This document shows positions 7,646-57,448 of a stretch of DNA of 64,000 nucleotides, piece after piece (the first letter of the stretch is position 1; each line of letters begins with the position of its first letter). Made by a program: the position numbers and the translations under genes. Origin of the DNA: Botryllus schlosseri (taxonomy: Eukaryota); the NCBI GenBank assembly GCA_051294905.1, contig CM119371.1:8434001-8498000 (forward strand), in the 5' to 3' direction. The notes below the pieces were generated by a model that did no database searches, was not told where the DNA came from, and worked only from the letters and a program-made list of their open reading frames with translations.

Positions 7646-8590
7646 ATGGCAATCGATTGGATGCGGAGGAAATTGACTTATGTGACCGATCACATATTCC
7701 TGTTGATTGTGGCGTTAATGTTACTGGACACCGCTACAAACATCTACTCCACAATACAGTACTGTACACGCGAAGACCTACTACAAGGAAATGTACCCGC
7801 TATATTGTCAGCATTAGGTGTCATGATTGGTGTCTGCGTAAACACCGTGGTTATCAAACATGTCTGTTTGGCGAAGCAGTTGGCGAACAGCTCGAAGGAA
7901 TGGAAAGGTCTGGTTTATCGTTTTTTGACGACGTGGAAAAACGTACAATGCATGTGTGAATCAATCCCTCACTTATGTATCAACCTCTATCTGCTGTCGA
8001 AGAAAACAGTTCTAGAAATAGAGGACAATTTGTTGACTGAAGCATCGCCCATGATATCCTTCTGGTCAATTTTATTGTCGCTACATGTGCCGTACGAAGA
8101 GTATCTCGAGGCAAAAGGCGTTCAAGCATCTTTCACAGAGAGGTGGTTCGTTCTCGTGGCCAGACTAGGAGTATTCGTTACGAGGATAGCTGTTTTCGTT
8201 CATTTCGCAGTGGTCTTTGACTTCATAGGCGCTTTATTACTTTCCGCTATGTGGTTTTTTCGCTATATTTTCCTGCAATGCCGGATGGGCGAAGATAGTG
8301 ATAATTTTTTATACTGGTTTAAATCGAGGAATGGTGGGTCTACAGTGGCGACTTATTTCATGCTTACGCCTTTTTTGCCGCACAAATGTAGCAAAGGAGG
8401 TGCACTAATATTATTTGTTTTCTTCCTCGATCAAATGGTGGTTGTGTATATGTCTGATGTTTTGCATCAAAGTCAGTCTATTCAACAACAACCTCCGTGT
8501 CTGATCAGTTCTGTAGAAGTTAATTTGGTCAGTATCCTATCCTCTGGTTGCTTGATATTTTCCATAGCTCTCAGTAACATTTCGTCTTAG
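7646..8590 (+). CDS. XK-related (XKR scramblase family) multi-pass membrane protein, 314 aa
   Basis: Uninterrupted ORF with multiple hydrophobic segments; CESIPHLCINLYLL matches the XKR ESxPQLxLQLY motif. A 5' exon cannot be excluded. Confidence 0.75.
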   Translation: MAIDWMRRKLTYVTDHIFLLIVALMLLDTATNIYSTIQYCTREDLLQGNVPAILSALGVMIGVCVNTVVIKHVCLAKQLANSSKEWKGLVYRFLTTWKNVQCMCESIPHLCINLYLLSKKTVLEIEDNLLTEASPMISFWSILLSLHVPYEEYLEAKGVQASFTERWFVLVARLGVFVTRIAVFVHFAVVFDFIGALLLSAMWFFRYIFLQCRMGEDSDNFLYWFKSRNGGSTVATYFMLTPFLPHKCSKGGALILFVFFLDQMVVVYMSDVLHQSQSIQQQPPCLISSVEVNLVSILSSGCLIFSIALSNISS

Positions 8591-9312: not shown

Positions 9313-10939
9313 TTACACGTCTTTGATGCGTTTGATCGTAGCACTATCTAGATCACACAGTTCAAAAGATAAAATACCGCCAGAAAACGTTTTAGTTGTG
9401 CATTGTGAGAACGTGTTGTTGGTGGATTTCATCACAATGTCAGATATTTTCAACAGCGTGTCGAGGCTGCTAACCCGAGACAACCTTTCCTGCAACCATC
9501 GCAAATTAAAATAGAACTCCTTCGGAACATGTGGCAGCGCTGACGCTGGCAGGACATCAATTTCCACCGATGCACATTCTTCTTCATCTTGCTTCGGCGG
9601 TGCTTTGCGTATCCTCGAATCTGTTCCATACCTTTTCTTTATATGATCAGCTATCTTTATATCTTCCGACATGGACTTGATGTTTGTTCCGAATTTAGAT
9701 CTTTGCAAAACTGACTTATGCAATTTGACTTTTAAGCAGCGGAACTCCTCTGTGGTGGGTGTAGGCCGTGTGTCAGGCAATCGTGTGCCCGAATCAAGAT
9801 TCGCCTTTGTTTCATTTCTACTTTTGGTACTCGTGAAGATTGATTTCTTCTGCGTTCCGCGAACATATGTTTCGAAGCCGTGTCCGCTAGACTCGGCCCA
9901 TCTGTTCTTGTCGACTGCTGGGTCCACACCCTTGGCGGTTACCGGCTTCCGCGTAGTATTGCGAGACGGCGAAAGTTTCCTCTTTCTTGGGTCCTTTTTG
10001 GGGCTTGAAACGTTACGCTGCTTCAAATCTAAATCATAATTTATCATTTTATGCTCTTCGCCCTTCAATTCGCACTTGACAGTTGATCTGGATTTAGTTC
10101 TTCGCAGTGTGGACTTGTGCAATTTCATTTCTAGGCTGCGGAACTTGTCAGGTGCAGGTGCAGGTTTATCATGCGTTATTAACATCCATCGGCCCGAATT
10201 AGGTGTCTCCTGGTTTTCATTCTTACCTCTAGTACTTTCGGAAGTCAAATTATTTTGCGTTCCGCGGATACATTTTTCCAAACAGTGGTAGACTGCGGTA
10301 GACTAGTGGTAGACTGCGGTAGACTTGGCCAAACTTTTCTTGTCGACAGCCACCGCTTCTTTGACGCCAACAGGCTTCAACGCAGTATGGCGAGACGTTC
10401 TGCCTTTTCTTGGTTGATTTTCAATACAATTTAGTACAGAATTATGTGTAGTTCCAGATGCCAATATTTTCAAAGTCGATTCTGCGCGCTGTGAAAGGTT
10501 GAGAAGTTTCTTCGCAGTCGTTTTCGACTGTGCCTTCCCTTTCGTATCCGTTCGGGTGTACTTTCTAACGTCGACCCTTTCTCGTTCTGATATTTGCTTG
10601 CCAGAGACGCCGAACATTTCCGTTTTTTCTTCTTAACTGGTGCTTCATCATTTTGAGTAAGCTATTTTAACATATTTGCTCGAAATGGTGATAATTTTCT
10701 TTTCCGCGTCACATTCAATTTTAAATTATCTTCAGTCCAGCGAAGTACTGACTCGATCAATTCGTGAATCGCTCCCTTAGGTCTGTGGGCGATGCGCACT
10801 TTTGGCCGATGAGCAGCGACTACGACACCTTCCATACTGCTTCCTGTGTGTACGATTCGCAACGTCCAGCTCGACAACTTTTTAATAAATGCGAGCATAT
10901 CGTTACCATTCCCAGAAGACAACTCTACATTGTCTACAA
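9313..10939 (-). pseudogene. Disrupted intronless gene with basic repeated blocks and a C-terminal AF9/ENL ANC1-homology (AHD)-like domain
   Basis: C-terminus LRWLQERLSRV...LLKISDIV...LSFELCDLDSATIKRIKD resembles AF9/ENL AHD (FDFDLCSLDKTTVRKLQ). ORFs 10303-10617 and 9313-10281 are in frame across one TAG. There is a further break near 10620-10662 and a hAT insertion at 10940. Confidence 0.6.
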
Positions 10940-13570: not shown

Positions 13571-14949
13571 AGTTATCAAACATGTCCGTCTGGCGAAGCT
13601 GTTGGCTAACAGCTCGAAGGAATGGAAAGATTTGGTTTATCGTATGACGACGTGGAAACACGTACAATGCACGTGTGAATCAATCCTTCACTAACTAAGG
13701 ATGGTGTGAACCTCTGAAAGGTTCAGGTTCGTGTGAACGCGAACGTGATCTTCATGACGTCACGTTACGTCATATTACTAATTCCAACCAACATTTCAGT
13801 GAAGTGATAGCCTATATTAATGTACAGATTGTACTCGATACCTATAGCGACGACTCGGCGGGCGATATAATGCCGCAATGCTGAAGTACATATTGGCGTT
13901 TTGAACGTCGCCAAATGTATCAACTGGGGAAATCAAATAATGTAATAGTCCCATAGAATCAATATCTTCCGTCGCTTTGCCAACAATTTCACGAGGAGTT
14001 GCATGGGAGTTTAATCTTACGCCTTAACGGTCCACGCCAGACCGGACTATGTATTCGGCGTCTGAGTATTGCTACGTTGATATTGAGCAGAGAGTATAAA
14101 GCGGTTTCTATACTCGCCACCGATTTTACCCCGCCAAGTAGGCCTAATACAGTAGTAGCCGACACCCCAATCGCACGGATTTGGTTTTTATGATACAAAC
14201 ACATATTACATCAACATTGACCACGTACGCCTGCTAGGTTTTTAACGTCAGACAGCGATAAAAATTCCATTGAGTGATTGAATAGACATCATACGCTGAC
14301 TACATGTCCTACATTCTCAACGAAAGATGTTATAATTAAGGTAAAATTGTTAAATATGAAAAAGGTTTACAGTGCAGAACCTAACAAGGTTCGTTTGTGA
14401 ACGCGAACCTCTAAATTTCTGAGGTTGACACACAGAACGCGAACGTGAACCTCACGTTCACACGATCCCTCGTATCAACCTCTATCTGCTGTCAAAGGAC
14501 GAAACAAAAACGAGTCAGGAAATAGAGGACAATCTATTGACTCAAGTACCGCCCATGATATTCATCTGGTCAATTTTGTTTTCGCTACATGTCCCGTACG
14601 AATAGTATCTCGAGGTCAAAGGCATTCAAGCATCTTTCAAAGAGAGGTACCTCGTTCTCGTGGCCGGACAAGGAGTGTTCGTTACGAGCATGGCTGTTTT
14701 CGTTCATTTCACAGTGGTCTTTAAATTCCAGGGAGCTATATTTCATTGCGCTATGTGGTTGTTTCGCTATATTTTCCTGGAATGCTGGATGGGCGAAGAT
14801 TGTGATAATTTTTTATGCAGGTTTAAATCGAGGAATGGTGGGTTTACAGTGGCGACTTATTTCATCATTATGCTTTTTTGCCGTGAAAATGTTGCATCAC
14901 AGTTGTACTAAGATTAGATGTTTTCTTCCTCCATCAACTGGTGGTTGTT
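13571..14949 (+). pseudogene. Degenerate duplicate of the XK-related gene, split by an insertion
   Basis: 13571-13692 matches ~7850-7972 and 14471-14949 matches ~7977-8445 at DNA level, with frameshifting indels. Confidence 0.9.
13696..14470. mobile_element. MITE with GTGAAC/GTTCAC subterminal repeats inserted in the XKR pseudogene
   Basis: Imperfect TIR AGGATGGTGTGAAC / GTTCACACGATCCCT, and the XKR homology resumes directly after it. An inverted copy of its right end starts at ~14949. Confidence 0.75.
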
Positions 14950-16434
14950 AGGAACGGTGTGAACGTGAGGTTCACGTTTGCGTTCTGTGTATGAACCCAA
15001 TAAATTTAGAGGTTCACGTTCACAAACGAACCTTGGTAGGTTCTGCACTGTGAACCTTTTTCAAATATTACAATTTTGACTTTATTACAACATCTTTGGT
15101 TGGAATTTATTGAATTTTAACTGCGGGCCACTCTTTGCAAGCATATAAAAATAACACTAAACGATCATGCACCTTGACAATCTAAAACCTATAACTTGCT
15201 TTGTTACAAAGGTTTTCTCGAATATTAAGCGAGCTCGACCGGCAATCACACAACATCAAGACTTATCACCATGTTGTTGGCTCAGCAGGTATTTGCACAT
15301 TTATCAGATAAAGGACATGGGACGCATATGATTATTGTAGTAAAGCTTTTCACGGACAAATTTGATAGCTTTATACTCCTCTTTTATCTTGGTAGAATGA
15401 CCAAGCAGTACAGGAAGAATACATTTCCGTTGTTCGAGAAGTATATTGTTTAGGCTTGGAAAACTACTCTTTTGACAAACAAGATCTCGCATCAAGTCAT
15501 TTTTATACTGATTGAATAAGTGAGGACGACATGAGGTTTATTTTCAGACAATTATCAGATGGTGCACAGTATACACGCAAAGTCTACTATTTACTTTCTA
15601 CCATGTGAAATATTAAGAGGTCAATAAAGAAATTTGTTTTTATGGGTATACGTATCTCCTAAATTAGAGTAAATATAACAAAACCAGTATGATATTCATA
15701 ATCGCCAACCTTGAATACCCTCGAAAGACTCCTAGATGTTTTGACAATTTGTTTTCTTCTTTTTGTTGAACAGTGTAAAGATCGCATTAAACGCACGACA
15801 GTTCCACATACGGGTTGCTTTTTCTGCAGGGGCGAGCAACAAACGGTCCGCGACGGGATTTTGAGCGGCCCGCAGAGAGTTTCCCGGCTTACATGATAAT
15901 GTCGCCAACCTCCACAGTCTGATGCTGCAATCCCTCACTACTGGCTTATCAAATCACATGAAATTATAGTGACTTCTTCCAAGTTATTTCGTAGTTCTTT
16001 GTTTTCGTTGTGGTATGCGTTTATGCGTCACTGAATGAATCCGTGATTGCCTAGCTGACAACGATTGTCATGAAAGACTTGTTCTCCTTCGGTCTTCATA
16101 CATTTGCGAGAAAACATATTGGACCATCAACATGAATAAAATAACGCTGCTTTTCAATATAACTGATTTTTACGGCTTTCTACGTCCGTTTAAAGAACTT
16201 GTGGACAACTTTTATCGACAACAGATGTCTCCTTAGACGTCAAGAGCTGATGAAGTAGGCCGACATTACGTTAATAAATTCATTGAATACTATTTTTGAT
16301 CTCAATGCTTTAAACCTAAAATTTACATTGCATGCCATAAGACCCTTGTATACGTTCTAGATTAGCAATTAATGTATCTATTCAGTAATCCGGCCCGCTA
16401 TTGCAAAGTATCTCGATATCAAACGATTCAACAT

Positions 16435-22698: not shown

Positions 22699-23990
22699 CA
22701 GGCCGTGTTATTTTTTGCAAATGCCAAAACTGCCAAAAATAACTCATTTTTGCCATTATTCGATTTTCATTTTTGGCAGTTTTGGCATCGTCCTCTAAAT
22801 AGATAGTTTCAGCCTCGAATTAGTCGCAAAAACGCTTTATTTGGGCTAGTTTGTCAAAAGACACCACAAAATGTGCAGCATCCACGCATAATCAGTGCCA
22901 ACAAACAATAAGAAGAAGAAAAAACCTAACGATTTCATAGGTTAATAATATCAAACGAAACCGCAAAATGTGCAATATCAATCGGAATCGGTGCCAATAC
23001 GCAATAAAAGCATAACAAACACGCTCAACAGCTGATTGTCACAGCTGTTGCATAGACTTAAATCGTTTGCACTGTAACAGTGCGTACAAAATCAGGTCAG
23101 CTAAGTTTCTCCTAAATTCATTTCTCGCCCAGCGAATCTGGGAAATAGCGGCTTCAACAGTAGCCGTTGAGGGAAAGAACGTTGCCAGTCATCCATAAAA
23201 GGTTTTCAGATCTTCAAAATCTTTGGAGGGCCGAACCGGCTCCCATGCATCATGAAAAGAGATCACTTGGCCAGTGCCATCGATCTCATCGCGGAAGGAA
23301 TTTTCTTCCCGATCCTTTTCCAGGAGTTTCCTGTGTTGTCTCTCAACACATTCTATTTAGTAGCCCGACTATCATTTCTCCTTCAGTCTACCGATATATT
23401 TTCGGAGGACTTTTGTCACTTCAGGTGGCGGTAATATTACCAACTCGCATGGAAGAGTCCTGTAGTCCTGTCTGGCAAAACGAGACTATGCAGCTCAGAA
23501 ATAGCCAGACAGTTTGTTGCGTCACAATGTTCAACTTGATCACAATGCAAAAATCGTGGTTGATTTTGGGGGTTCCAGTTCCATGAGCCGAATATAATTT
23601 ATATTTTAATAATCAGTACTGCAGCAGCTTCTCATTGATTCCCGTTTTATCAAATTTAGCGCTCGACAAGCCTGTCAAAAATGGTCGTAAAATTGCCTTT
23701 GGACAAATGGAAAGTATGACGTAAACCAAATGCAGTCAGCCGTTCAATCTCGCCGTGCCCACACCATTCGGGACACCATGCTTTCATCCCTAATGGGTGG
23801 GCTGGACCCAGATTAAGAAACCTGCCTTTCACAAACGCTCTTCTCGCTTGTAACGCGGTCCTGTTAACACAACACCATGAACGAAATACAATATTTGGCA
23901 GGCCGTGTTATTTTTGGCATATGCCATAAATTGCTTATTTTTGGCATTTTCGGCATCTGGCTCCTGAAATGCCAAAAATAACACGGCCTG
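22699..23990. mobile_element. Non-autonomous hAT-type element
   Basis: TIR CAGGCCGTGTTATTTTT / AAAAATAACACGGCCTG; exact 8-bp TSD CTTATGGC (22691-22698, 23991-23998). Confidence 0.9.
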
Positions 23991-24040
23991 CTTATGGCTA
24001 AATGTCAGACGGATGCGAAGGTTTTGAAATCATGCTAACG

Positions 24041-24826
24041 CAGAGGTGGGCAAACTTTTTAGTTCGCGTGCCGCATTCAACATTTGAATCCATTCGCGGG
24101 CCGCACTATGTAAAATTCGGATACGAAGCCAAAATTCAATATGATTATTTGATTATATATTGATTAAAGACATCAAAATAATATATATGTATTTGTATAA
24201 TTAAAACAAACCAAACATTGATTTGATGATAACATACACACGTAGGAAATATTGACGAGAATTTAGAACCTGGTCATCGTAGTTGATAAAATTACGGGTG
24301 TGTCCCGTTTCTTGTACAATTTGAATGTAAATTTTAGTCTGTAAGCAGCGATCTGTTCATATATATGCTATTGTACTTTTGGTAACTCCAGGACACAATG
24401 CTGACAGCATAATAACCATGTTACCTTTCAATGCTATCCAACACACTCGCGAATCGGTTCTTTCAAGTACAGCACTAAAAGTAAGAAACTTGCTCGTGTT
24501 GCCAATCTAAAATTACACTCGTGATCCAAATTTAGTCATATGCGTTTCAATTTCTGTGATGCTTAGTAATTGAAACCTTTCAAAATGTATGGATCTCGAG
24601 GTCGGGCTATCGCACCATCAATGAAATAAAAGAAACACCATGGTAATAATATAACTTATCATTATCCTATTAAAATATATTAGGAAAAAAGTTCAATCAA
24701 GTAGGCCTATAGCCACATTAATTTGATTGTTAGTACCCATTTTATCAATGTTTTTACGCTTCCTGAATCTTACGAGAACCGCACAAAACGGTGTTATTAT
24801 TGCCGGTTGTCGTTTGCCCACCCCTG
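24041..24826. mobile_element. hAT (Charlie-type) MITE
   Basis: Ends CAGAGGTGGGCAAAC / GTTTGCCCACCCCTG; TSD TGCTAACG / TGCTAACT (7/8). Confidence 0.85.
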
Positions 24827-24899
24827 TGCTAACTGAAGACTGTATTAATCGGGATCATAAGTAGTATATAGGATCGGTCGCGAACTAACGTTTTTTTGC

Positions 24900-25420
24900 A
24901 TGGGTTCTTATGGGCCCGCTCGCACATCGTATTGAAAACTCGTGTTGGCATATCGTACTTTTAGACCCCCCCTATCGCTCGCACATCGTAATGTGTTCTT
25001 ATGGGTGCGCTCGCACATCGTACTTTCAAGTATAGGCTGCGGCGGTGACTCGTATTGAAAACTCGTGTTGGCATATCGTACTTTCGGGTGTAGGCATCTC
25101 TCGCACATCGTACTTTCGCATGTCGTACTTTCGCGTATAGGCTGTGTTGGTGATTCGCTATGTGTTCTTATGGTCGCGTCGGCATATCGTACTTTCGGGT
25201 ATTGGCATCTCTCGCACGTCGTACTTTCGCATGTCGTGCTTTCGCGTATAGGTTGTGTTGGTGATTCGCTATGTGTTCTTATGGGTGCGGTCGTGAATCG
25301 CCCTTTCGGGTATAGGCATCTCTCGCATGTCGTACTTTCGCGTATAGGCTGTGGTGGTGATTCGCCATGTGTTCTTATGGGCGCGGTCGTGATTCGTACT
25401 TTCAGGTATCTCTCGCGTGG
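24900..25420. repeat. Subterminal modular repeat array (left arm)
   Basis: Shuffled modules CGTACTTTCG, TCGCACAT/TCGCATGT, ATGTGTTCTTATGG and GTATAGGCTG. Confidence 0.9.
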
Positions 25421-25863
25421 TGTTGAATATGTACGAGTCGCCAACAATAACCGCGCAAACGGAAACGTGGCTTGCAAGAGGATTAAGCAGTGCGACCTAT
25501 ATTTCGAATGACCTGCGCGCTGAATTATTTCTCGTCCAGCCGCTACTATCGATTATTACACTAGACCGGTCAGTGTGAAATAGTTTGATCGTAAATTATG
25601 ATATATGACGTCGTAGTTTAGTCGTGTCAAATGACCGATCGTGTTCTCTTTCCTCGCTATTGATTGCTACCTGAATAATACTTTCGGCTTATTCGCTGTT
25701 TCGCGCCTACAGAATAGTCTGCTGTTCATAGTCACAGATTCATCGCGATAGCACAATTTTCACACCTCGATCAGTAGAACAACACCACACTAACGCAGTT
25801 GGCGAATCACATAGGTCATACATTTTACGCGAAATATTGTATTGTGGTATACAAATATGCAAA

Positions 25864-26500
25864 CTATTCTTTCAATTCAACAAGTCTAGTTAACGAATCG
25901 ATTTTCAAGCTGCCGACACAGTTTTTAACACGAGTGAGTTGATATTTCTTCCCGGGTACGAGCGAGGCTTTGTTCCATTGATCCAAAACCACCTCACCAG
26001 TATCATCCTTCAATGTAAAACTGTATAATTTCAACTCCTTTCCGGCCCCAGAATTGACCATCTTCTCCTCTCGAGAAACACAAGTAGCGGCGATCGAAAC
26101 GTATTCATCTTTATTCCCGTATACCGATTCGCAGGTCAATAATGGGTATTCTTCAGTCGTATGTCTCGATTTTCCATGCGTGGTTACTGACGAAGCCCGT
26201 CCCAGTAATACAGCAGGTTTTCCAGTAAACTTGTCAATTTGGACCCAACCGGATTTGACCATGAGTTTTTTTTCGTTTGGCGAATGCTTTCTCAATGTTC
26301 CCGAACAATTCACGATTGAAACACGTGAAAGATATCTCTTCGTTATTACCGTCGATGAATATACCTTTGAGATATTGGCTAACGCCACCTCTTTTGGGTG
26401 ATGAGACGAATTTGACGCCGACGTGAAAATTTGAAGTTGCTCCGACTTGCATAGTGTTGACGCTGTTCGATGTCATATCGTTTGATAAAGTGGGAGTCAT
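25864..26500 (-). pseudogene. Tandem OB-fold (RPA1/SSB-like) gene, left-arm copy, with a +1 frameshift
   Basis: Mirror image of 36521-37157; T8 run at 26266-26273. Confidence 0.7.
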
Positions 26501-29500
26501 CAGTGTAACTCACTACACAAATCAAGTTGAATCGTATTTGAATGTATTGATTCGACCCAACTCAAATCCTTTGACAAATCCTATTAACGCGATCTGTTGA
26601 ATCGAACGTAACCTGAATATTACTGACGCCAACATTCACCCGCATCGGATCATTCACACATTCCACGTCGGTGTTTTAACACTTATAGAATCAATACCAA
26701 CTATCTCTAACCCGATAATATTCAATCATTTTGGTAATTTGCCAACTTTAAATCCATTCGCGGGATGTACTAAAGGTAAATCCAAATAATCCAGAATGAA
26801 ATATTTGGACTTTGACATTGCGTGAATTGAAATAGGTTTGACAAACATGACTACCAACTTTCACCCAGTCACATTTTAAGATTATACTTTGAAACAATCC
26901 TTGAAACTGACAACTCTATTCACGACTCCGTTCCCGTTTGTAAAATAGAGTTTCAGAAATACTATCACTATGACAACTCAACATTTTAACATCTCGCCAT
27001 GCACAAACGAGTAAAATACAAAAACCTTGGTAAGTCAATCCGTTTGTAGTAACTCACCAAACCAAAACAAAAAGTGTCCGTATGAAAAGTAGACAAGACT
27101 ACGCGAGTAATCACTACAACCCACAAACATACCAACTCAGTTGTATCCATATCCCATCTTTTTTATTCAACTGTAAGATGAAGTAATTACTACTTGGCGC
27201 GCGGTTTGAGATTAACACATTACATTTGAGTATACGAGATTTGAATGTCTGACCAACGTAGTTGAGAATTCTTACAATCGAACGATGGTGTTATATTCAA
27301 AGTTATCATGCTGTGAACATAAGGATTGACGCATTGATTTGACATATGAGATTTGTAATAGTTGATCATTACTTGATTATTAAATTATGACATTATTAGA
27401 CCAGGGTTGTGTTGAAGGTTATTACGATACCAACAAACTTTTCAGAAACATTGTTATTAACATATCGATTTGTAAAACTAGATTAACGTGTCTGAAATGT
27501 TTTGATTGGGAAGATTAAGCCGTGTTCGTAAAAACCACGCAGCGTATTGTGGAAATCAGGAAATAATTTACAAATGTAATTGTCTCCAGTAACCAAGACT
27601 AAAGATGAAACAACAATTTTCTTTGTTGAACAATAACCGGTACAATACTTTATCGTCGTAATCAGCAGTGAGAATTGAAACACTTTCGCACATTATCCGG
27701 CGTCAAGATATCACACTAGGTGAATTGACATATCGCCGCTTGAATAATACCTAATCCGTTCGAACCATTTCACATACTTTGATCATTACAAAAGTAAATT
27801 GTGATATGTTTGTTAGATGCATTCAATTCAGTTAGAAGTGTCTAGTGCCCAACACTCGTAATATCAAAAAAGTACTTGCTACACTGTTATTTGCTAAACG
27901 TGTTTTGCATTGTTGTTCATTTGTAGTATTGATTGAAATTGTTCTTGAACCCTCAAATAATAATTCCCGACATGAAACCAAGCCGCTGAAAGTCGTTACC
28001 ATCACGAAGATACAATGTGCACGATGTTTGTCAAATGTGTCCTACCTGGCCAACAGAAAACAATTTTCACTCACTCGAAATGAAACCAATGTGATGGTCT
28101 CCATTCGATATTTTGTTTGTGTCAAATACTTTGCAATGAACACATTTGCGTGGTTGAGCTTTACATCATCTAGCTGTTATTTGTAAATCAAGATTTCGGT
28201 AAACTTGTAAATGTATCGTTTAACTAACCGACATTTAGTGATTGGGAAACATACCAGACGATACACATCCATCTCCGAAATACTTCATTGATCTTAATTT
28301 CCATCATCGTGATAATCGAAGTACATTTCTTTCGAATTCGTAACAACCGACTATGACATGATAAATTTTTGACAAGTTATGCTTAGAAGATTGGTTGCAT
28401 ATCGCGAAAAATAATATACCACTCATATTGATGCTGTTACTCCATTGATCGATATTTTCAAACGAGTAAAATTTATTACTTGAGTTTCTCCGCTTAATGT
28501 AAATGTAAACTCAGCCGTCTTTTAACATCAGAAAGACATTGATAAAAAGTAGGCAATCAAACGCTACAAGTTTAACTTTTGTAGGTTGTGTATGATTACC
28601 CCGCGCAACTCATTTCTCACCAAAGGTATATGAAATATATTCATGGTACACGAAAATACTCGATATTCTCTACGAACCTGTACAATGATTGGTGACGCTT
28701 TCAAACTGTTTCGATACCTCAAGACCTTTATTGTCTGAATGGTTGGTCATGTATCTTGATAATCGAGTAGTTCAACACACAACTAGTATTAACAGAAACA
28801 CCAGAGTTGCTTACACAAAAGTTTGTAAGTGCACAGTATGCGAATACCATGTGTAAGTCCAGCACAATTGGGGTATCCATCCGAGTTTAGTTAACACAAT
28901 TTACGACACCAAGGTCACCTCATCTTTCGTAAGACAACAAACCAACCAAGGCTTCAGGATATGTCCATGTCATAGCAATAAATCAGCTACTCCAACAACG
29001 GAATACATATGCTTACATCTTACACACAAATCAATCTACTTTGCTAACGAAAAGTGCCGAGCCATCACATGGTTGTCCTCACAACAATACAACTAAAACA
29101 TACTATCATACAAAATGGCTGTTATAGTCACCAACGGTACATCGTACAAGTAACAAGTCTCGAGAATCCAGTTACTCAAAAAACGTGAAAGTATTTTTAC
29201 ACCAAGTCGTTATGTTGACGAACGCGTATATTGTAATATCATGATCGATTTGCATTCGTTGGCTGCAAAAATGTCACTACTCTAAATAATTATATCTCAC
29301 TCAAAAGCATACTTGTCACCATTCGTTTTCATCAAGCACGAGTTCAAGAAACTTACTACGACATGAATTGTTATTTTTATGTTGTGTAAATAGTTAATAA
29401 TTAATTTTAGTAACACTATATCAACATCACGGAGTTGTGCGAATAGATTTACACGTAGTCTTGTGGTTTTAATCGAAGCACACAGCGTGTTCTAATGTAG

Positions 29501-29719
29501 AGTCATCTCTATTGTACAACAACTCGGTAATCGAAATGTATTAACATTTAAACAGCGATCCTGTTTCGTCACGCAAAAAATATCTTTACTGTCGCAACAC
29601 TCTGATACTCTGCACAAGATGTGTAAATCCTTTTCACACTCATAATAATACACTAACGGGATACCGACGTCAAGCAACAACGTTTACCAACATCACTGAC
29701 ACTGAACATACGATACCTA

Positions 29720-30330
29720 CCCAAGTAAAAATATCATTTTCACCACCAGGTCAGCCGTTACCTGTGTACAATTACCATTTGCCCTTGGGGGTCTAGCGTT
29801 ACCCGAGTAACAAATCCTTTTTCACTTGGAAATATATTTTTTCTCTGGGTAACAAACGTTTTTCACTTGGAAATATATTTTTTCCCTGGGTAACAATCCT
29901 TTTTCACTTGGAAATATATTTTTTCCCAGAGTAAGAAACCATTTTCACTTGTAAATATATTTTTTCCCCGGGTAACAAACCTTTTTCACTTGGAAATATA
30001 TTTTTTTCCCTGAGCAGCAAACCTTTTTCACTTGGAAATATATTTTTCCCAGAGTAAGAAACCATTTTCACTTGGAAATATATTTTTTTCCCTGAGCAAC
30101 AAACAATTTTCACGCGGAAATATAGTTTTTCCCCGGGTAACAAACCTTTTTCGCTTGGAAAGATATTTTTCCCTGAGCAACAAACCATTTTCACTCGGTG
30201 GTCCGTCGTTTACCTGAGTAAAAATATCATTTTCCTCTGGAGATCTGGCGTTTACCCAGTGTAACAACACATTTTCTCTTGGTCATCTAGCTTTTCCTAG
30301 AGTAACAAAACCATTTTCATTTTGAAATCT
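29720..30330. repeat. ~38-40-bp minisatellite (left arm)
   Basis: Unit approximately TTTTCACTTGGAAATATATTTTTTCCCNGRGTAACAAACC; about ten good copies plus degenerate flanking copies. Confidence 0.92.
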
Positions 30331-32690
30331 GACAAACACACCTGACAATTTGATATTTTTGTATATTGTTACAACGGATAGCGACAAAATATACACCAAC
30401 AACAACTCCAATACATTTGTGTAATCGCATATTCACTTGTGCTGATGCAACCCATCAAAATCATCGGTTACCCACATGCAATGTGTTGTTGTACATCGAC
30501 GTTTATGTTTTTGGAAAATTGGACAATAGGCTTCGATAGTTCTGTGATGTCCGGGTTCGTGCTTTGGATTTTCCAGAGTCAAAATGTCTGAATAAAACAC
30601 CTCCTTGACGATGGTTGGTATGTGGATAACGGTTGGATTTATGTCACCCATCGCGATAACAACTCCAGGTCGAGTTTTCCCCCGCGTGTTTACTATATTG
30701 TGTCTTTATTGGTCATGTATGTCTCGACATTCAGTTTGAAATCGGAAACCCTGATAAAGTATGTAACCGGATCCGGATATCAACTCTGAATCGATAAACC
30801 AATGAACAATATTCAAAGTAAACATGTTACACCCTGTGTTTCCACGAAAAAATACCATCCAGACATACGTCGCGCTTGTTTGCCCACATCAGTATACGCA
30901 TAAATGGAGGTGTGTGACATTGCATGCAATGTGTTGGTATACAAACATCGATCCACAGACATTATCATAGCCGGTAGTTTTGATGTAGATCGAATGTCAT
31001 CACACCCGATAACAATGTCATACCAATAAGCCACATTGCAATGACTCTGAGTCAATCTGAAGCAGGACATACAGACACCGTTCACTGATTTACTCGATGG
31101 CTTTATCGCGTTGTAACATTACAAGATAGTCATGACCCTATCTGCAGACGGACCACCCAGACCAATTGGATACATCGGTCAATATTCATCGTGTTGTCGA
31201 CACCGAAGTTTTCTGCTGAGACTACAGCGTTTGATCCAGGTGAATTATCGAAGTACGGTGCTCGAAATGATTGCGATCAGTCTTTCAGTCACGATGCATG
31301 GATGTCGCTACTCCCACATAACGACTCCAGATAAATATCGTGAGCAGTGATTCTGCAAATCTTGGACTGATATTGTGATCCAATAAGGTGTGTTTCTGTG
31401 GAATCAAGACTGCAATCGTACACCACAATAGAACACTACCTCGCGATTTCACACACAATCATAAAACACATCGTCGTAAGGGTCCAGTTCGTCTGGCAAC
31501 ATTTCGAAACGGTCGTCGCCACAAGAGATTGGTATCATTTTGAAACGACATCGTCACAAGTCTATTGACGTCGATTCTGTTGGTCATGTCAATCCGTTTC
31601 ACAATCCACCGTTTTTCAACTCCCCGCACCATAGTGTTACGACACAGACAAGAAGCGTCGGTGGAAATAATAAAACACGGAAAGCACACTTTGGTGTTAT
31701 TTGACATGGATTTTACACCCGACGAACCTTACATTCGAGCGATGCATTGGAATGACGCTTGTATTATTGACGTAGAAGGAACAGAAATGTATCGATTTAT
31801 TGGTTTCGTACATATCCAACTAAAACCAGGGTATATGATTGTGCATGGTTCGCATATTCGACTGTGAACGCCCAATTGGTATATGTTGTACAGTTCACTT
31901 TCACCGTCGTGCGAATAACCCATGTTAGGGTTCCATGTTTGTGTGTCTGTATGTCATGCTTCAGATTGACTCAGAGTCATTGCAATGTGGCTTATTGGTA
32001 TGACATTGTTATCGGGTGTGATGACATTCGATCTACATCAAAACTACCGGCTATGATAATGTCTGTGGATCGATGTTTGTATACCAACACATTGCATGCA
32101 ATGTCACACACCTCCATTTATGCGTATACTGATGTGGGCAAACAAGCGCGACGTATGTCTGGATGGTATTTTTTCGTGGAAACACAGGGTGTAACATGTT
32201 TACTTTGAATATTGTTCATTGGTTTATCGATTCAGAGTTGATATCCGGATCCGGTTACATACTTTATCAGGGTTTCCGATTTCAAACTGAATGTCGAGAC
32301 ATACATGACCAATAAAGACACAATATAGTAAACACGCGGGGGAAAACTCGACCTGGAGTTGTTATCGCGATGGGTGACATAAATCCAACCGTTATCCACA
32401 TACCAACCATCGTCAAGGAGGTGTTTTATTCAGACATTTTGACTCTGGAAAATCCAAAGCACGAACCCGGACATCACAGAACTATCGAAGCCTATTGTCC
32501 AATTTTCCAAAAACATAAACGTCGATGTACAACAACACATTGCATGTGGGTAACCGATGATTTTGATGGGTTGCATCAGCACAAGTGAATATGCGATTAC
32601 ACAAATGTATTGGAGTTGTTGTTGGTGTATATTTTGTCGCTATCCGTTGTAACAATATACAAAAATATCAAATTGTCAGGTGTGTTTGTC

Positions 32691-33301
32691 AGATTTCAAA
32701 ATGAAAATGGTTTTGTTACTCTAGGAAAAGCTAGATGACCAAGAGAAAATGTGTTGTTACACTGGGTAAACGCCAGATCTCCAGAGGAAAATGATATTTT
32801 TACTCAGGTAAACGACGGACCACCGAGTGAAAATGGTTTGTTGCTCAGGGAAAAATATCTTTCCAAGCGAAAAAGGTTTGTTACCCGGGGAAAAACTATA
32901 TTTCCGCGTGAAAATTGTTTGTTGCTCAGGGAAAAAAATATATTTCCAAGTGAAAATGGTTTCTTACTCTGGGAAAAATATATTTCCAAGTGAAAAAGGT
33001 TTGCTGCTCAGGGAAAAAAATATATTTCCAAGTGAAAAAGGTTTGTTACCCGGGGAAAAAATATATTTACAAGTGAAAATGGTTTCTTACTCTGGGAAAA
33101 AATATATTTCCAAGTGAAAAAGGATTGTTACCCAGGGAAAAAATATATTTCCAAGTGAAAAACGTTTGTTACCCAGAGAAAAAATATATTTCCAAGTGAA
33201 AAAGGATTTGTTACTCGGGTAACGCTAGACCCCCAAGGGCAAATGGTAATTGTACACAGGTAACGGCTGACCTGGTGGTGAAAATGATATTTTTACTTGG
33301 G
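32691..33301. repeat. ~38-40-bp minisatellite (right arm)
   Basis: Mirror of 29720-30330 (repeats of GGAAAAAATATATTTCCAAGTGAAAA). Confidence 0.92.
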
Positions 33302-36300
33302 TAGGTATCGTATGTTCAGTGTCAGTGATGTTGGTAAACGTTGTTGCTTGACGTCGGTATCCCGTTAGTGTATTATTATGAGTGTGAAAAGGATTTACAC
33401 ATCTTGTGCAGAGTATCAGAGTGTTGCGACAGTAAAGATATTTTTTGCGTGACGAAACAGGATCGCTGTTTAAATGTTAATACATTTCGATTACCGAGTT
33501 GTTGTACAATAGAGATGACTCTACATTAGAACACGCTGTGTGCTTCGATTAAAACCACAAGACTACGTGTAAATCTATTCGCACAACTCCGTGATGTTGA
33601 TATAGTGTTACTAAAATTAATTATTAACTATTTACACAACATAAAAATAACAATTCATGTCGTAGTAAGTTTCTTGAACTCGTGCTTGATGAAAACGAAT
33701 GGTGACAAGTATGCTTTTGAGTGAGATATAATTATTTAGAGTAGTGACATTTTTGCAGCCAACGAATGCAAATCGATCATGATATTACAATATACGCGTT
33801 CGTCAACATAACGACTTGGTGTAAAAATACTTTCACGTTTTTTGAGTAACTGGATTCTCGAGACTTGTTACTTGTACGATGTACCGTTGGTGACTATAAC
33901 AGCCATTTTGTATGATAGTATGTTTTAGTTGTATTGTTGTGAGGACAACCATGTGATGGCTCGGCACTTTTCGTTAGCAAAGTAGATTGATTTGTGTGTA
34001 AGATGTAAGCATATGTATTCCGTTGTTGGAGTAGCTGATTTATTGCTATGACATGGACATATCCTGAAGCCTTGGTTGGTTTGTTGTCTTACGAAAGATG
34101 AGGTGACCTTGGTGTCGTAAATTGTGTTAACTAAACTCGGATGGATACCCCAATTGTGCTGGACTTACACATGGTATTCGCATACTGTGCACTTACAAAC
34201 TTTTGTGTAAGCAACTCTGGTGTTTCTGTTAATACTAGTTGTGTGTTGAACTACTCGATTATCAAGATACATGACCAACCATTCAGACAATAAAGGTCTT
34301 GAGGTATCGAAACAGTTTGAAAGCGTCACCAATCATTGTACAGGTTCGTAGAGAATATCGAGTATTTTCGTGTACCATGAATATATTTCATATACCTTTG
34401 GTGAGAAATGAGTTGCGCGGGGTAATCATACACAACCTACAAAAGTTAAACTTGTAGCGTTTGATTGCCTACTTTTTATCAATGTCTTTCTGATGTTAAA
34501 AGACGGCTGAGTTTACATTTACATTAAGCGGAGAAACTCAAGTAATAAATTTTACTCGTTTGAAAATATCGATCAATGGAGTAACAGCATCAATATGAGT
34601 GGTATATTATTTTTCGCGATATGCAACCAATCTTCTAAGCATAACTTGTCAAAAATTTATCATGTCATAGTCGGTTGTTACGAATTCGAAAGAAATGTAC
34701 TTCGATTATCACGATGATGGAAATTAAGATCAATGAAGTATTTCGGAGATGGATGTGTATCGTCTGGTATGTTTCCCAATCACTAAATGTCGGTTAGTTA
34801 AACGATACATTTACAAGTTTACCGAAATCTTGATTTACAAATAACAGCTAGATGATGTAAAGCTCAACCACGCAAATGTGTTCATTGCAAAGTATTTGAC
34901 ACAAACAAAATATCGAATGGAGACCATCACATTGGTTTCATTTCGAGTGAGTGAAAATTGTTTTCTGTTGGCCAGGTAGGACACATTTGACAAACATCGT
35001 GCACATTGTATCTTCGTGATGGTAACGACTTTCAGCGGCTTGGTTTCATGTCGGGAATTATTATTTGAGGGTTCAAGAACAATTTCAATCAATACTACAA
35101 ATGAACAACAATGCAAAACACGTTTAGCAAATAACAGTGTAGCAAGTACTTTTTTGATATTACGAGTGTTGGGCACTAGACACTTCTAACTGAATTGAAT
35201 GCATCTAACAAACATATCACAATTTACTTTTGTAATGATCAAAGTATGTGAAATGGTTCGAACGGATTAGGTATTATTCAAGCGGCGATATGTCAATTCA
35301 CCTAGTGTGATATCTTGACGCCGGATAATGTGCGAAAGTGTTTCAATTCTCACTGCTGATTACGACGATAAAGTATTGTACCGGTTATTGTTCAACAAAG
35401 AAAATTGTTGTTTCATCTTTAGTCTTGGTTACTGGAGACAATTACATTTGTAAATTATTTCCTGATTTCCACAATACGCTGCGTGGTTTTTACGAACACG
35501 GCTTAATCTTCCCAATCAAAACATTTCAGACACGTTAATCTAGTTTTACAAATCGATATGTTAATAACAATGTTTCTGAAAAGTTTGTTGGTATCGTAAT
35601 AACCTTCAACACAACCCTGGTCTAATAATGTCATAATTTAATAATCAAGTAATGATCAACTATTACAAATCTCATATGTCAAATCAATGCGTCAATCCTT
35701 ATGTTCACAGCATGATAACTTTGAATATAACACCATCGTTCGATTGTAAGAATTCTCAACTACGTTGGTCAGACATTCAAATCTCGTATACTCAAATGTA
35801 ATGTGTTAATCTCAAACCGCGCGCCAAGTAGTAATTACTTCATCTTACAGTTGAATAAAAAAGATGGGATATGGATACAACTGAGTTGGTATGTTTGTGG
35901 GTTGTAGTGATTACTCGCGTAGTCTTGTCTACTTTTCATACGGACACTTTTTGTTTTGGTTTGGTGAGTTACTACAAACGGATTGACTTACCAAGGTTTT
36001 TGTATTTTACTCGTTTGTGCATGGCGAGATGTTAAAATGTTGAGTTGTCATAGTGATAGTATTTCTGAAACTCTATTTTACAAACGGGAACGGAGTCGTG
36101 AATAGAGTTGTCAGTTTCAAGGATTGTTTCAAAGTATAATCTTAAAATGTGACTGGGTGAAAGTTGGTAGTCATGTTTGTCAAACCTATTTCAATTCACG
36201 CAATGTCAAAGTCCAAATATTTCATTCTGGATTATTTGGATTTACCTTTAGTACATCCCGCGAATGGATTTAAAGTTGGCAAATTACCAAAATGATTGAA

Positions 36301-36520
36301 TATTATCGGGTTAGAGATAGTTGGTATTGATTCTATAAGTGTTAAAACACCGACGTGGAATGTGTGAATGATCCGATGCGGGTGAATGTTGGCGTCAGTA
36401 ATATTCAGGTTACGTTCGATTCAACAGATCGCGTTAATAGGATTTGTCAAAGGATTTGAGTTGGGTCGAATCAATACATTCAAATACGATTCAACTTGAT
36501 TTGTGTAGTGAGTTACACTG

Positions 36521-37157
36521 ATGACTCCCACTTTATCAAACGATATGACATCGAACAGCGTCAACACTATGCAAGTCGGAGCAACTTCAAATTTTCACGT
36601 CGGCGTCAAATTCGTCTCATCACCCAAAAGAGGTGGCGTTAGCCAATATCTCAAAGGTATATTCATCGACGGTAATAACGAAGAGATATCTTTCACGTGT
36701 TTCAATCGTGAATTGTTCGGGAACATTGAGAAAGCATTCGCCAAACGAAAAAAAACTCATGGTCAAATCCGGTTGGGTCCAAATTGACAAGTTTACTGGA
36801 AAACCTGCTGTATTACTGGGACGGGCTTCGTCAGTAACCACGCATGGAAAATCGAGACATACGACTGAAGAATACCCATTATTGACCTGCGAATCGGTAT
36901 ACGGGAATAAAGATGAATACGTTTCGATCGCCGCTACTTGTGTTTCTCGAGAGGAGAAGATGGTCAATTCTGGGGCCGGAAAGGAGTTGAAATTATACAG
37001 TTTTACATTGAAGGATGATACTGGTGAGGTGGTTTTGGATCAATGGAACAAAGCCTCGCTCGTACCCGGGAAGAAATATCAACTCACTCGTGTTAAAAAC
37101 TGTGTCGGCAGCTTGAAAATCGATTCGTTAACTAGACTTGTTGAATTGAAAGAATAG
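36521..37157 (+). pseudogene. Tandem OB-fold (RPA1 DBD-A/B or SSB-like) gene, ~211 aa if one A is removed from the A8 run at 36748-36755
   Basis: Domain 1: IFIDGNNEEISFTCFNRE...MVKSGWVQIDK (compare RPA1 LVDESGEIRATAFNEQ...YFSKGTLKIANK). Domain 2: FTLKDDTGEVVLDQWN...PGKKYQLT (OB-fold DxTGxIxLxxW motif). Two overlapping ORFs join at the A-run. Confidence 0.7.
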
Positions 37158-37600
37158 TTTGCATATTTGTATACCACAATACAATATTTCGCGTAAAATG
37201 TATGACCTATGTGATTCGCCAACTGCGTTAGTGTGGTGTTGTTCTACTGATCGAGGTGTGAAAATTGTGCTATCGCGATGAATCTGTGACTATGAACAGC
37301 AGACTATTCTGTAGGCGCGAAACAGCGAATAAGCCGAAAGTATTATTCAGGTAGCAATCAATAGCGAGGAAAGAGAACACGATCGGTCATTTGACACGAC
37401 TAAACTACGACGTCATATATCATAATTTACGATCAAACTATTTCACACTGACCGGTCTAGTGTAATAATCGATAGTAGCGGCTGGACGAGAAATAATTCA
37501 GCGCGCAGGTCATTCGAAATATAGGTCGCACTGCTTAATCCTCTTGCAAGCCACGTTTCCGTTTGCGCGGTTATTGTTGGCGACTCGTACATATTCAACA

Positions 37601-38121
37601 CCACGCGAGAGATACCTGAAAGTACGAATCACGACCGCGCCCATAAGAACACATGGCGAATCACCACCACAGCCTATACGCGAAAGTACGACATGCGAGA
37701 GATGCCTATACCCGAAAGGGCGATTCACGACCGCACCCATAAGAACACATAGCGAATCACCAACACAACCTATACGCGAAAGCACGACATGCGAAAGTAC
37801 GACGTGCGAGAGATGCCAATACCCGAAAGTACGATATGCCGACGCGACCATAAGAACACATAGCGAATCACCAACACAGCCTATACGCGAAAGTACGACA
37901 TGCGAAAGTACGATGTGCGAGAGATGCCTACACCCGAAAGTACGATATGCCAACACGAGTTTTCAATACGAGTCACCGCCGCAGCCTATACTTGAAAGTA
38001 CGATGTGCGAGCGCACCCATAAGAACACATTACGATGTGCGAGCGATAGGGGGGGTCTAAAAGTACGATATGCCAACACGAGTTTTCAATACGATGTGCG
38101 AGCGGGCCCATAAGAACCCAT
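37601..38121. repeat. Subterminal modular repeat array (right arm)
   Basis: Repeated CGAAAGTACG, CATAAGAACACAT and ATGTGCGAG modules; mirror of the left arm. Confidence 0.9.
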
Positions 38122-38434
38122 GCAAAAAAACGTTAGTTCGCGACCGATCCTATATACTACTATCATATGGTGCTCATATCAAAAGCATTCAGAGATATCA
38201 CACGTATAAAGCTATATTATTGCGAGAGTGCCTTACTTGTATCTTACACCTTACTTACGGACAGTCACGCAATCAGTTCTTCCGAATCGGGATAATAGCA
38301 TCTGCGACAGAGAACACTGTAAACTGATATCATTTGGTTAACTTTTAGCCACTCAACCTCCAATTCTTCGACAGTAACAAAGTTGCGCTACAATACAGGC
38401 GGCAGTAATCTGTCTAACAGCCGGGAATGTGAAT

Positions 38435-38590
38435 CTAAGCTCCTCCTCGCCACATCATCTGCATAAGCGACGTCTTACTAAAATCCGTGCTACAAGTCGG
38501 CAGTTACTAAATCAAAAACAACGAATATAGGCCTGGTGTAAATGACCATTGTAGTCGACAAACAACATTAATACCACAAACAACAACAGC
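38435..38590 (+). repeat. Dispersed repeat, probable retroelement 3' end with (AAC)n tail
   Basis: Inverted homolog at ~5840-5990 (GGTGGCGAGGAGGAGC, GTAACTGCCGACTT, GGTCATTTACACCAGGCC); ends in AAACAACAAC. Confidence 0.6.
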
Positions 38591-40310
38591 CGAGAACGTT
38601 GATGTTTGTATTGTGAATTTATTATCGGGAATGTCACTGCCAAGGGAAATCATCCCTCGCCTAGGATCAGAACGGCAGTGTGTATTTGCAAACAGCTTTG
38701 TCTATCTGAACAATCAGCGTATTGCGAAATCCAAGATTTTATGGTGTGCGATATCGGTTCCGATGAATGTGCAACTGACATTGGTTGCCACCCCAACATC
38801 AATTTTGCTTTTAAAAGTATACAAACTTCGTATCGAATTCGGCGGAATACATATCTATCTATATATAGACCCCTTAACAAATTGAATGTATCTTATTTGT
38901 CGCATTATAAAGATATATTATATTGGACTGATAAATGAGCAATTGTTCTCAGAAGGTTGACATGAATTAGGATTTTAAAAGCAGTGGGTTCCGAGCCCCT
39001 ACAACCGCATGGTACGTCACTATTGAACTCGCGTGACCTAGTCTGAGCTTCCACGATAATAATGATTAATAAAGATGTTACAAAAATTGACACAAACGTT
39101 GCAATAATATCGATAAATAACATACGTATTAAGAGCGATATTGCACAATGCACATTCATCAGAGAGATATATCATATCGTATAACGAGCCATGTATGTCT
39201 GTCAGGCCAAAGTCTACCGACCTCTTGCCTACAATAAGTATACAGTATTTGCTACTGCTACGTGTAGTTAGAAATTCGATAAGAATGTATCGTTATCAGG
39301 TAGGACACACCCAATATATTATACTATAGAATTCTCGAACTTCCAGTTATTATGCGAACGAAAGACCGATGTCAATTAATTTTCGTTTACAGTGAGAGTT
39401 CATTATGCGAAATTTGTTTTTTAATGTCATTTTATGCAGTGTGGTACGACAAGAGCTAAATATAATTCCAGGCTGTAAAAATATGTATCAAACAAATCAC
39501 CATTGAGGACAAATATTTTTTTGGTTCACATTGAATTTTTGAAATTTTCCTGAAAATTTACCAAACCTAGGAAACAACGTGATGAAAGCAGCATCACACT
39601 GCTTAATCTATTGGAGATATCATAATTGAGACTACCTGAGCTCTACAACATATAAGAAACTGCGTAGTTGATTCTACTTATTTGACATGAAAGATGTGCA
39701 GTTTATATAAGCTTTAGGCAATCTAAGTAGCCAATATAAATGGGAATATCCATAATGAAATATTGGAAATATTATAATAGCACTGTCTCAAATGCGATTC
39801 CTTTCATTCGCATTTTACATGTTGATTTGTCGGAAATCACCCGTGAAACCGCTCCAAAATATGTAATAGAGTTTATGTGCCGATGCAGTGACCATTACCA
39901 TTGTCTTGCCCAATGTGGCATCCGGAGTAGTAGTAGTATTGTAATGGTACCTCTGATCCGCCTCGAATCATCCGACTCAATTTGACTTTGGGTAAGTGGT
40001 TCGTGTGATGCCAATACCTGCATGAATTTGGTAGACTGGATTTCGCAACACTAATGCCAAAAGAAAGTTCTTACATCACGCAGTAATCAGTGGCTAGTCG
40101 CCAATCAATCATTATTTCCCCATCTTGTACGGTTAGCTATATAGTGTCACACATTCTTCTGTCGTTTCGCCATTCAATTGGATAAATTCTTATTCGAGAA
40201 GTTGAGAAAGCCGCCGTCTTTCGTCAGACCGCTGGTATTTTGTTTTGGTAAGATATATTAATGTTGTGGATGCAGACTTGAGTTGTTGCTAATGCGATGT
40301 GTATCTGTAG

Positions 40311-53255: not shown

Positions 53256-54536
53256 GAGCACGGTAATGAAGTGTGATCCCCGCGTTTCATATCGAGGTTG
53301 ATTTCGATCAACCTCCAGTAAACGTGTGCTGGGTATATTGATGTGTTTGCAATTGTACAGGACGGGTATAGAAATTCATAATTGATAGGTTTAGATAAGA
53401 CATTGAGATGGTTTTGCCGTTTGCATCGTGGTACTAAATAGTGGTGACTTAGCAATAGGGTTTGGTAACGAAATTTTTCTTACGAACCGCGGTGGTTTGG
53501 TTACGGTACCAGAGTTCAACGTAATAAAGATATCTGACAAACAAATAAATGCGTTATTTAGGGTTACCGTATTTTGGGGTCCGGAAAAGCGTGCACTTTT
53601 TACAAATCATAACACGTATAAAATCGAACGAGATAGCGGGTTAGATGAAATTTTTACCCCTAGAAATACTGTGTTGACTAAAGGTCATTGTTCAAAATCG
53701 GTAGTCCAGTAATAGCGTCAGTTCTTGATCATCTTTCTCTTCGCTGCCGACTTTAGTTGTGCCTGTGCAATCGCCTGTCCGTTTAAGCTATAAAAGAAGG
53801 ACGGATTTCCACAACAGGACATTTGAGAGTGCTCAGAGGAAATTTACGATTTCTTGTAAAAGGGGGGACCTAGGGTAACCCTGCGTTTTGTACTTGGCTA
53901 AACGTAGTCCTTGATTGGCATTCAGCTTGGGCGCCCTATTGTTCCGTAAAATGAAAATGTCCAACTTTGTCGGAGATGATAGGGGGTTTTACTGCCCGGA
54001 CGAGATTTTAATTAGTATTTTCGGAATCAGTGAGAAAGTAGTTTTCGATTGAGACTGGTTTGATTAAATTTTGCGCTCTGGTAGCTGGTCGCCAGCACTA
54101 AGATGATATCCAGTAGGCTGCACCAGTTATGTCAATGATACCCAGTAGGCTGCACCTGTCAATGATACCCAGTAGGCTGCACCAGTTATGTCATAATATC
54201 TTCTACATGTTGTGATACGAGAACGACTCGTATAAGCATAGTTTTAGAAACTTACGTGGATAACTGCAGACGAACAGGTCATTGCGCAACTCGTATAGGA
54301 TACAGTCCGGTACGGTCACCAGGTCACCACTATACAAGAGTGCAGTTATGTTCTTGACTGACGACTGTAATCATAAACTAGGTAAATTCAGGCTTAGTGA
54401 TTTTCCCTGGTAACATGCAACATTACAATGTTAGAAATAGCTGAAAATGCTTGTATTATTATTACAGCCACCGAAACAAGCGAAACAAAATAAGATGTAA
54501 TTTTGGAACTGTTTGAAGCAAGTCGAACAACTCTCG

Positions 54537-54760
54537 GCATCATAAACTACTGGGTATTCCTTCAAAATAGCACATTACTCGCTAAACTATGTACCGTGCA
54601 TCTAGTTTTTACCCACATCCCGCACCAGTCGCAATTCCAGCTTCCAGCATCATAAACTACTGGGTATTCCTTCAAAATAGCACATTACTCGCTAAACTAT
54701 GTACCGTGCATCTAGTTTTTACCCACATCCCGCACCAGTCGCAATTCCAGCTTCCAGCAT
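54537..54760. repeat. Perfect 110-bp tandem duplication
   Basis: CATAAACTACTGGGTATTCC...CCAGCTTCCAGCAT starts at 54541 and again at 54651. Confidence 0.95.
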
Positions 54761-57425: not shown

Positions 57426-57448
57426 AGTGAATAAACTAACCTCTCAGC

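Follow-up and report, generated by a model that had tools for sequence, protein, structure and literature searches.

Mavericks/Polintons have been proposed to replicate as free, protein-primed linear DNA, a proposal that rests mostly on their gene content and end-motifs. Passages of a study of vertebrate Mavericks (PMC8097293, Barreat and Katzourakis 2021) give 5'-(AGT)2//(ACT)2-3' as the commonest conserved end-motif, accompanied by target-site duplications (TSDs) that are perfect and 6 bp long, take either (AGT)2//(ACT)2 or (AG)3//(CT)3 as the end-motif criterion, and relate that protein-primed replication is thought to use the end repeats for its jumping-back step. The same passages report terminal inverted repeats (TIRs) of 46-1,447 bp and intact elements of 12,723-24,620 bp. 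Extracts of a preprint describe butterfly polintons with TIRs of ~2 kb that duplicate the hexon and adenain genes, and excerpts on C. elegans record Polinton remnants that consist of TIRs only; precedents therefore exist for long TIRs that bear genes, hence for TIR growth, and also for remnants that bear none. Here we describe an element of 13,302 bp within a stretch of 64,000 nucleotides from Botryllus schlosseri (assembly GCA_051294905.1, contig CM119371.1, positions 8,434,001 to 8,498,000 of the forward strand), which is called the window below and to which all coordinates refer. The element is an almost perfect palindrome with Maverick-type ends and a 6-bp TSD, and we file it as Maverick-type by its ends and integration footprint, not by gene content, and as copy-back by its architecture.

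Two further kinds of system invite comparison. Copy-back or snap-back genomes, as outlined in passages of a review (PMC13506859), run from one end through a unique stretch and a loop into the reverse complement of that stretch and back to the same end. The architecture of the element fits this pattern, both of its ends being the same end. However, copy-back and snap-back defective viral genomes are free replicating molecules in infections, mostly of RNA viruses, while the element sits in a chromosome, flanked by a target duplication, and is without a known parent virus or recognisable viral genes. Among DNA viruses, incomplete genomes of adenovirus carry long inverted repeats of one end. Foldback-type transposons (Drosophila FB, Galileo and Tetris) are similar to the element in their very long inverted arms, internal tandem repeats, many copies and little or no coding sequence. 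Their arms are largely tandem repeats, whereas those of the element are complex sequence in which tandem arrays take up ~0.9 kb of each 6.2-kb arm, and the element differs further in its 6-bp TSD and (AGT)2 ends. FB, which is related to MULE elements, makes TSDs of 9 bp, and Galileo, of the P superfamily, makes TSDs of 7 bp.

Architecture and integration footprint

A repeat search placed the inverted arms at 24860-31078 and 31943-38161, 6219 nt apiece with 864 nt between them. The parts of the element and its footprint are:

24854-24859, no strand: left TSD, ATCATA, identical to 38162-38167
24860-31078, plus strand: left arm, 6219 nt, whose outer end is the terminus with AGTAGT at 24860-24865
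31065-31078, plus strand: inner end of the left arm, with the mismatch at 31065 and then the 13-nt GACATACAGACAC, which pairs with 31943-31955
31079-31942, plus strand: asymmetric spacer (loop), 864 bp, with no Pfam match at E 0.001 or better
31943-38161, minus strand: right arm, reverse complement of the left, ending in ...ACTACT at 38156-38161
38162-38167, no strand: right TSD, ATCATA

Compared base by base, the arms are complementary at 6218 of 6219 positions. An earlier note on this DNA had described them as reverse complements, which holds but for strict perfection: one mismatch sets 31065 (G) against 31956, 14 nt from the arms' inner end. The remainder of its outline was borne out. The element starts at 24860 with AGTAGTATATAGG and ends at 38161 with ...CCTATATACTACT, so that the AGTAGT...ACTACT termini can be read directly from the sequence, and inverted repeat makes up 93.5% of its length, for which the note had given about 93%. 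The claimed exact duplication of ATCATA is likewise present, abutting both ends of the element, and since the next bases outward of the two copies differ, the target duplication is exactly 6 bp. At this base composition, the chance of an abutting 6-nt direct repeat is ~3e-4. The terminal 26-mer occurs within the window at the element's two ends only, even with up to 3 mismatches allowed, and none were expected from 100 shuffles.

The spacer is not palindromic, its self-complementarity of 26% being at chance level. No direct repeat flanks it, and we therefore rejected the idea that it was inserted later into a palindrome that had been perfect. The possibility that two whole elements lie head to head was ruled out, as the terminal motif is not present at the inner ends. 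Outside the element, nothing in the window resembled arm or spacer at E 1e-3 or better, and no paralogous empty site for the flanks was found within the window.

The combination of (AGT)2//(ACT)2 ends with a perfect 6-bp TSD matches the hallmark given in the passages on vertebrate elements cited above, in keeping with the earlier note's link to Polintons through the ends, and its description of the length as near genome scale agrees with the range published there, within which the 13,302 bp fall. The element also has terminal inverted repeats, as Mavericks do. However, these are far longer than those reported, at 6.2 kb or 93.5% of the element as against at most 1,447 bp in vertebrates and ~2 kb in butterflies. 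It further departs from Mavericks in its non-coding, many-copy interior, in the lack of detected core genes and in a gene of its own for a predicted OB-fold protein, both of which are taken up below. In the literature searched, which covered few subscription journals and no Repbase Reports, we found neither a report of a palindromic or fold-back Maverick/Polinton nor one of a gene for an OB-fold protein or an SSB (a protein that binds single-stranded DNA) as a Polinton component.

Origin of the palindrome

We favour, at about an even chance of its being right, a non-autonomous element of Maverick/Polinton type whose copy-back (fold-back) architecture arose on a free replicating molecule that was then integrated in trans by a helper integrase. 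The 13-nt GACATACAGACAC and its partner at 31943-31955 form the only inverted repeat of at least 13 nt in 24860-31955, apart from a local palindrome near 30917, and one change placed at random has a chance of ~0.45% of lying within 14 nt of one or other end of an arm. The position of the mismatch close to the junction and beside this 13-nt inverted repeat points to a fold-back copying event.

Under the favoured reading, a DNA 3' end near 31955/31956 on a parent element of a many-copy family would have folded back onto the 13-nt inverted repeat 877 nt upstream, and its extension would have copied the left 6.2 kb as far as the terminus. The product would have been a molecule composed of left end, 6.2 kb, 864-nt loop, 6.2 kb and left end again, in which the single mismatch beside the 13-mer would be the scar of the template switch. 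Its two identical terminal-repeat origins could have allowed replication by a helper's protein-primed polymerase, and the retroviral-type integrase of that helper would have inserted it at ATCATA, producing the 6-bp duplication. We infer that integration may have occurred in trans through a helper, that both origins would work and that packaging size may have limited the molecule. Beyond the junction-proximal mismatch there is no difference in the 6,205 paired bases of the arms, so that either the event is young or the arms have been held alike by gene conversion. Unless gene conversion keeps the arms alike, this implies an age below ~5e4 to 2.4e5 generations at assumed rates of 5e-9 to 1e-9.

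If this account is right, an integrated copy-back element with Maverick ends and a target duplication would be the fossil of a replication error, of a type known from viral genomes. An element that moved with no movement genes of its own would also mean that the integrase acts in trans on any DNA with the right ends. For the host, a near-perfect palindrome of 13 kb is a potential fragile site of the chromosome.

Coding content of the arms and spacer

Arm and spacer together contain 87 stop-to-stop frames of at least 40 amino acids, of which 75 (14 + 61) were scanned against Pfam, the other 12 lying in tandem-repeat arrays. None of the 75 matched a Pfam family at E 0.001 or better. The element thus yielded no pPolB, integrase, ATPase, protease or capsid gene by Pfam, bearing in mind that highly diverged capsid genes can escape such a search, and the scanned frames held no transposase remnant. 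A retroviral-type (rve) integrase found no match in the frames of the element or in the rest of the window. Elsewhere in the window, the 51 frames of at least 90 amino acids included no Maverick core gene, their only matches being an ANC1 homology domain and an RNase H domain. Rfam and tRNA scans of 24000-39000 were empty.

The absence of core genes asserted in the earlier note therefore holds across the scanned 75 of 87 frames. It does not follow that nothing is encoded, for each arm carries a gene for a predicted OB-fold protein, which the note had missed:

25864-26500, minus strand: gene copy 1, for a predicted tandem OB-fold protein similar to RPA and SSB, frame-shifted and read outward to the terminus
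36521-37157, plus strand: gene copy 2, mirror of copy 1 with the same frame shift, open reading frame at 36549-37157 (202 amino acids); the arms are identical here

On the minus strand, the frames 26237-26509 and 25867-26472 jointly match a 198-amino-acid database protein, P0001, which is 92% identical to the second frame over 139 amino acids. Relative to the intact P0001, the frame shift lies inside a homopolymer run at 26266-26273; the two arm copies may be broken alike, or a homopolymer sequencing error may be common to both. At 26272, within this homopolymer, five RNA molecules from run X23 terminate, which may reflect internal priming on the A-run.

By sequence, P0001 is nearly isolated. 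A single relative (E 4.7e-4) was found among 1.84 billion representatives, the best Pfam family was PF01336 at a non-significant E of 0.099, and comparison with PDB chains gave chance-level matches only. In viral and metagenome contig collections, candidate relatives of P0001 were pattern matches, none of which was confirmed by tblastn. The protein P0002 had no match in Pfam.

The ESM Atlas model of P0001 (predicted local distance difference test score, pLDDT, 0.78) has RPA-like tandem OB-fold proteins as its nearest clusters, with feature scores of 0.93-0.95 and template modelling (TM) scores of 0.66-0.81, and aligns with these tandem-OB clusters over residues 1-198. An AlphaFold2 model of P0001 by itself was unusable (pLDDT 38.7), while one built together with P0002 reached a mean pLDDT of 49.6, with 62-81 over residues 122-198. 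In this latter model of mean pLDDT 49.6, residues 117-198 superpose on the OB domains of Ta0387 (Z 10.2), baculovirus LEF-3 (Z 9.5) and archaeal RPA (Z 9.5), followed by those of SSB, PriB and MCM. Over these residues the predicted fold is like that of RPA and SSB proteins, among them viral ssDNA-binding proteins such as LEF-3 (Z 9.5-10.2), although P0001 differs from them in lacking a significant sequence match to any Pfam family or PDB chain. We read the arm gene as coding for a predicted RPA/SSB-like protein. As a speculation, the OB-fold protein of intact relatives could coat the strand displaced in strand-displacement replication.

The earlier note had taken the element for the defective genome of a Polinton-like virus. 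This is not shown by the present data, as nothing in the arms is recognisably from a Polinton genome, and a non-autonomous or satellite element with Maverick-type ends fits better as a description.

Arm repeats and the many-copy family

In addition to the gene, each arm contains two tandem arrays:

24895-25413, plus strand: subterminal array of short motifs (GTTCTTATGGG and CTCGCACATCGTACTTTCG), including 111/96-bp tandem units at 25063-25409
37608-38126, minus strand: mirror copy of the subterminal motif array
29774-30318, plus strand: internal tandem array of ~13 units of 41-42 bp
32703-33247, minus strand: mirror copy of the 41-bp tandem array

The repeat analysis found no inverted repeats internal to the arm; the local palindrome near 30917 came from the search for repeats of at least 13 nt.

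The region 23860-32100, which runs through one arm and the spacer into the beginning of the other arm, was compared with the contigs of three DNA-type sequencing runs and, for RNA, with the reads of a single run. In the three DNA-type runs, arm and spacer are many-copy throughout. In run X1, 155,223 contigs fell on the 8,241 bases, and the summed word depth, which is not equal to copy number, was 6.8e3 for the bin straddling the junction; in the bins from 24960 towards the interior it ranged over ~5.6e4 to 5.1e5. A second species label (X13), that of a relative, showed the same sequences at lower depth. Spacer and arm are repeated to the same degree, in agreement with the two being one continuous piece of a parent family. 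Family contigs diverge from the arm at 26504, 27225, 27271, 27388, 29128 and 30509, and many family copies in the three runs are without ~319 nt of the subterminal array (joints 25065 to 25385); the family is thus heterogeneous. Should its abundance match what the read depths suggest, the family would count as a Maverick relative that is non-autonomous and unusually successful.

The last stretch of left flank before the junction is single-copy in X1, with a depth of 15.3 and 1 contig at 24828. At that same position X1 reads A instead of G. Farther out, at 23860-24684, the left flank is many-copy, with X1 summed depths of 1.2e4 to 1.6e5. A single-copy X1 contig of 257 nt ends exactly at 24859, as would be expected of a word graph where the sequence of that sample has two continuations, and hints at, for example, filled and empty alleles. 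In the RNA run, 424 of 442 reads fit only in part and most are <99% alike; they come from other family copies and are uninformative on the expression of this one. No RNA run was listed as carrying the sequence. The word shares of the remaining runs (~0.35) were left out of account as evidence of presence or absence in further samples.

Alternative explanations

Several observations weigh against a copy-back molecule integrated by a Maverick-type helper. The element is known from one locus only, and the account presupposes a correct assembly across the whole palindrome. The end-motif is documented for vertebrates, no record of it for the lineage of the host having come up, and the window shows no CpG depletion (observed/expected 1.13). 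Nothing in the arms is recognisably Maverick-derived, and exact scans with the terminal 20-mer and 22-mer gave 0 matches in viral or metagenome contigs. Arrays of short motifs near the ends, and a family that seems so abundant, are met more typically among cut-and-paste transposons than among Mavericks. The model behind the OB-fold matches is of low confidence overall (mean pLDDT 49.6; 62-81 for residues 122-198). In addition, the mismatch could be a later mutation that fell near the junction by chance, and fold-back repair of a break in an already integrated element could give the same final structure.

This last route, formation of the palindrome in place, survives best among the alternatives, though we consider it unlikely. 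It starts from a non-autonomous Maverick-type element with short TIRs, already resident at ATCATA, in which a break was repaired by fold-back priming at the 13-nt repeat; synthesis would have proceeded along the left part, the new strand would have annealed to the old right TIR, and the right interior would have been deleted with the original target duplication kept, so that the palindrome itself never moved. Such a history accounts equally for the TSD and the end-motifs, as well as for the 13-nt repeat and the mismatch close to the junction, dispenses with transposition of a 13-kb palindrome, and has a parallel in the fold-back-templated inverted duplications recorded at breaks in yeast (PMC11724301). 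No observation made here speaks directly against it. It does, however, demand that the new strand join the old right TIR without any difference out to the last base. The copy-back origin put forward in the earlier note is consistent with the architecture, the 13-nt repeat and the mismatch, but the note had not weighed formation in place after integration.

A more elaborate form of the favoured copy-back reading, for which we see a rather small chance, is that a Maverick-like virus has a satellite lineage, propagating as a snap-back palindrome, of which the element is one copy. Such a satellite would be gene-poor and near genome length, with nothing kept but two identical protein-priming origins and an SSB-like gene of its own, would depend on a helper for polymerase, capsid and integrase, and would have left many copies in the host. 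Were it so, the fold-back junction would constitute direct sequence evidence for extrachromosomal Maverick replication by a template-switching polymerase.

It is improbable, on balance, that the element is a fold-back-type cut-and-paste transposon in which AGTAGT is coincidental and the long arms are a family trait or the product of aberrant transposition. The superfamilies hAT6, IS3EU and Dada make 6-bp TSDs and could supply such an element. Its subterminal motif arrays and internal tandem repeats do resemble Foldback/Galileo-type and hAT-type ends, and a family as many-copy as the 155,223 X1 contigs indicate is unusual for Mavericks. Against this, the terminus is exactly the published Maverick motif, a given hexamer having a chance of ~1 in 4096, and the start is not of the TG/CA or YARNG type of IS3EU or hAT elements. 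The scanned arm and spacer frames gave no transposase remnant, and the duplications of Foldback and Galileo, at 9 and 7 bp, are not of the 6-bp length seen here.

Very little weight attaches to an assembly artefact, in which a chimeric fold-back read or a mis-join made the second arm. The arms are nearly perfect, many-copy repeats are hard to assemble, and among the listed runs none fits the whole window, the highest share of sampled words being 0.71. Yet a target duplication of 6 bp would not result from an artefact, and nor would the matching (AGT)2/(ACT)2 ends, the unique flanks that differ between the two sides and the asymmetric loop of 864 bp; moreover, a contig of an independent run stops exactly at the left junction.

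The least credible alternative is that ordinary repeat-rich DNA underwent an inverted segmental duplication and that its ends are not those of a mobile element, ATCATA and AGTAGT being due to chance or junction microhomology. It draws on an arm built of many-copy repeats from which some family contigs depart. Against it, an exact 6-bp flanking repeat (3e-4) and a specific hexamer are jointly very improbable, and a junction made by microhomology retains a single copy instead of one on each side.

Surrounding window

The two Pfam matches outside the element lie on the minus strand. The open frame at 9316-10302 (329 amino acids) has at its end an ANC1 homology domain (PF17793, with an E of 5.3e-6 that falls narrowly short of the curated threshold) and is probably an exon of an AF9/ENL-type host gene, although an ESM Atlas search with it gave no usable match, while that at 56547-57443 (299 amino acids) has an RNase H domain (PF00075, E 7.3e-9) and is probably a retroelement remnant. 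The CpG observed/expected ratio of 1.13 applies to the whole window, at 40% G+C, and the lack of CpG depletion indicates a host genome of the unmethylated type, not a vertebrate-like one. An inverted repeat of 153 nt at 14318-14470 and 14950-15102, 87% complementary with 479 nt between its arms, may be a small TIR element; the segment 14507-14806 is 86% like 8003-8302. Tandem duplications are present at 222-684, in units of ~240 nt, and at 54528-54747, where two 110-nt units are 96% alike.

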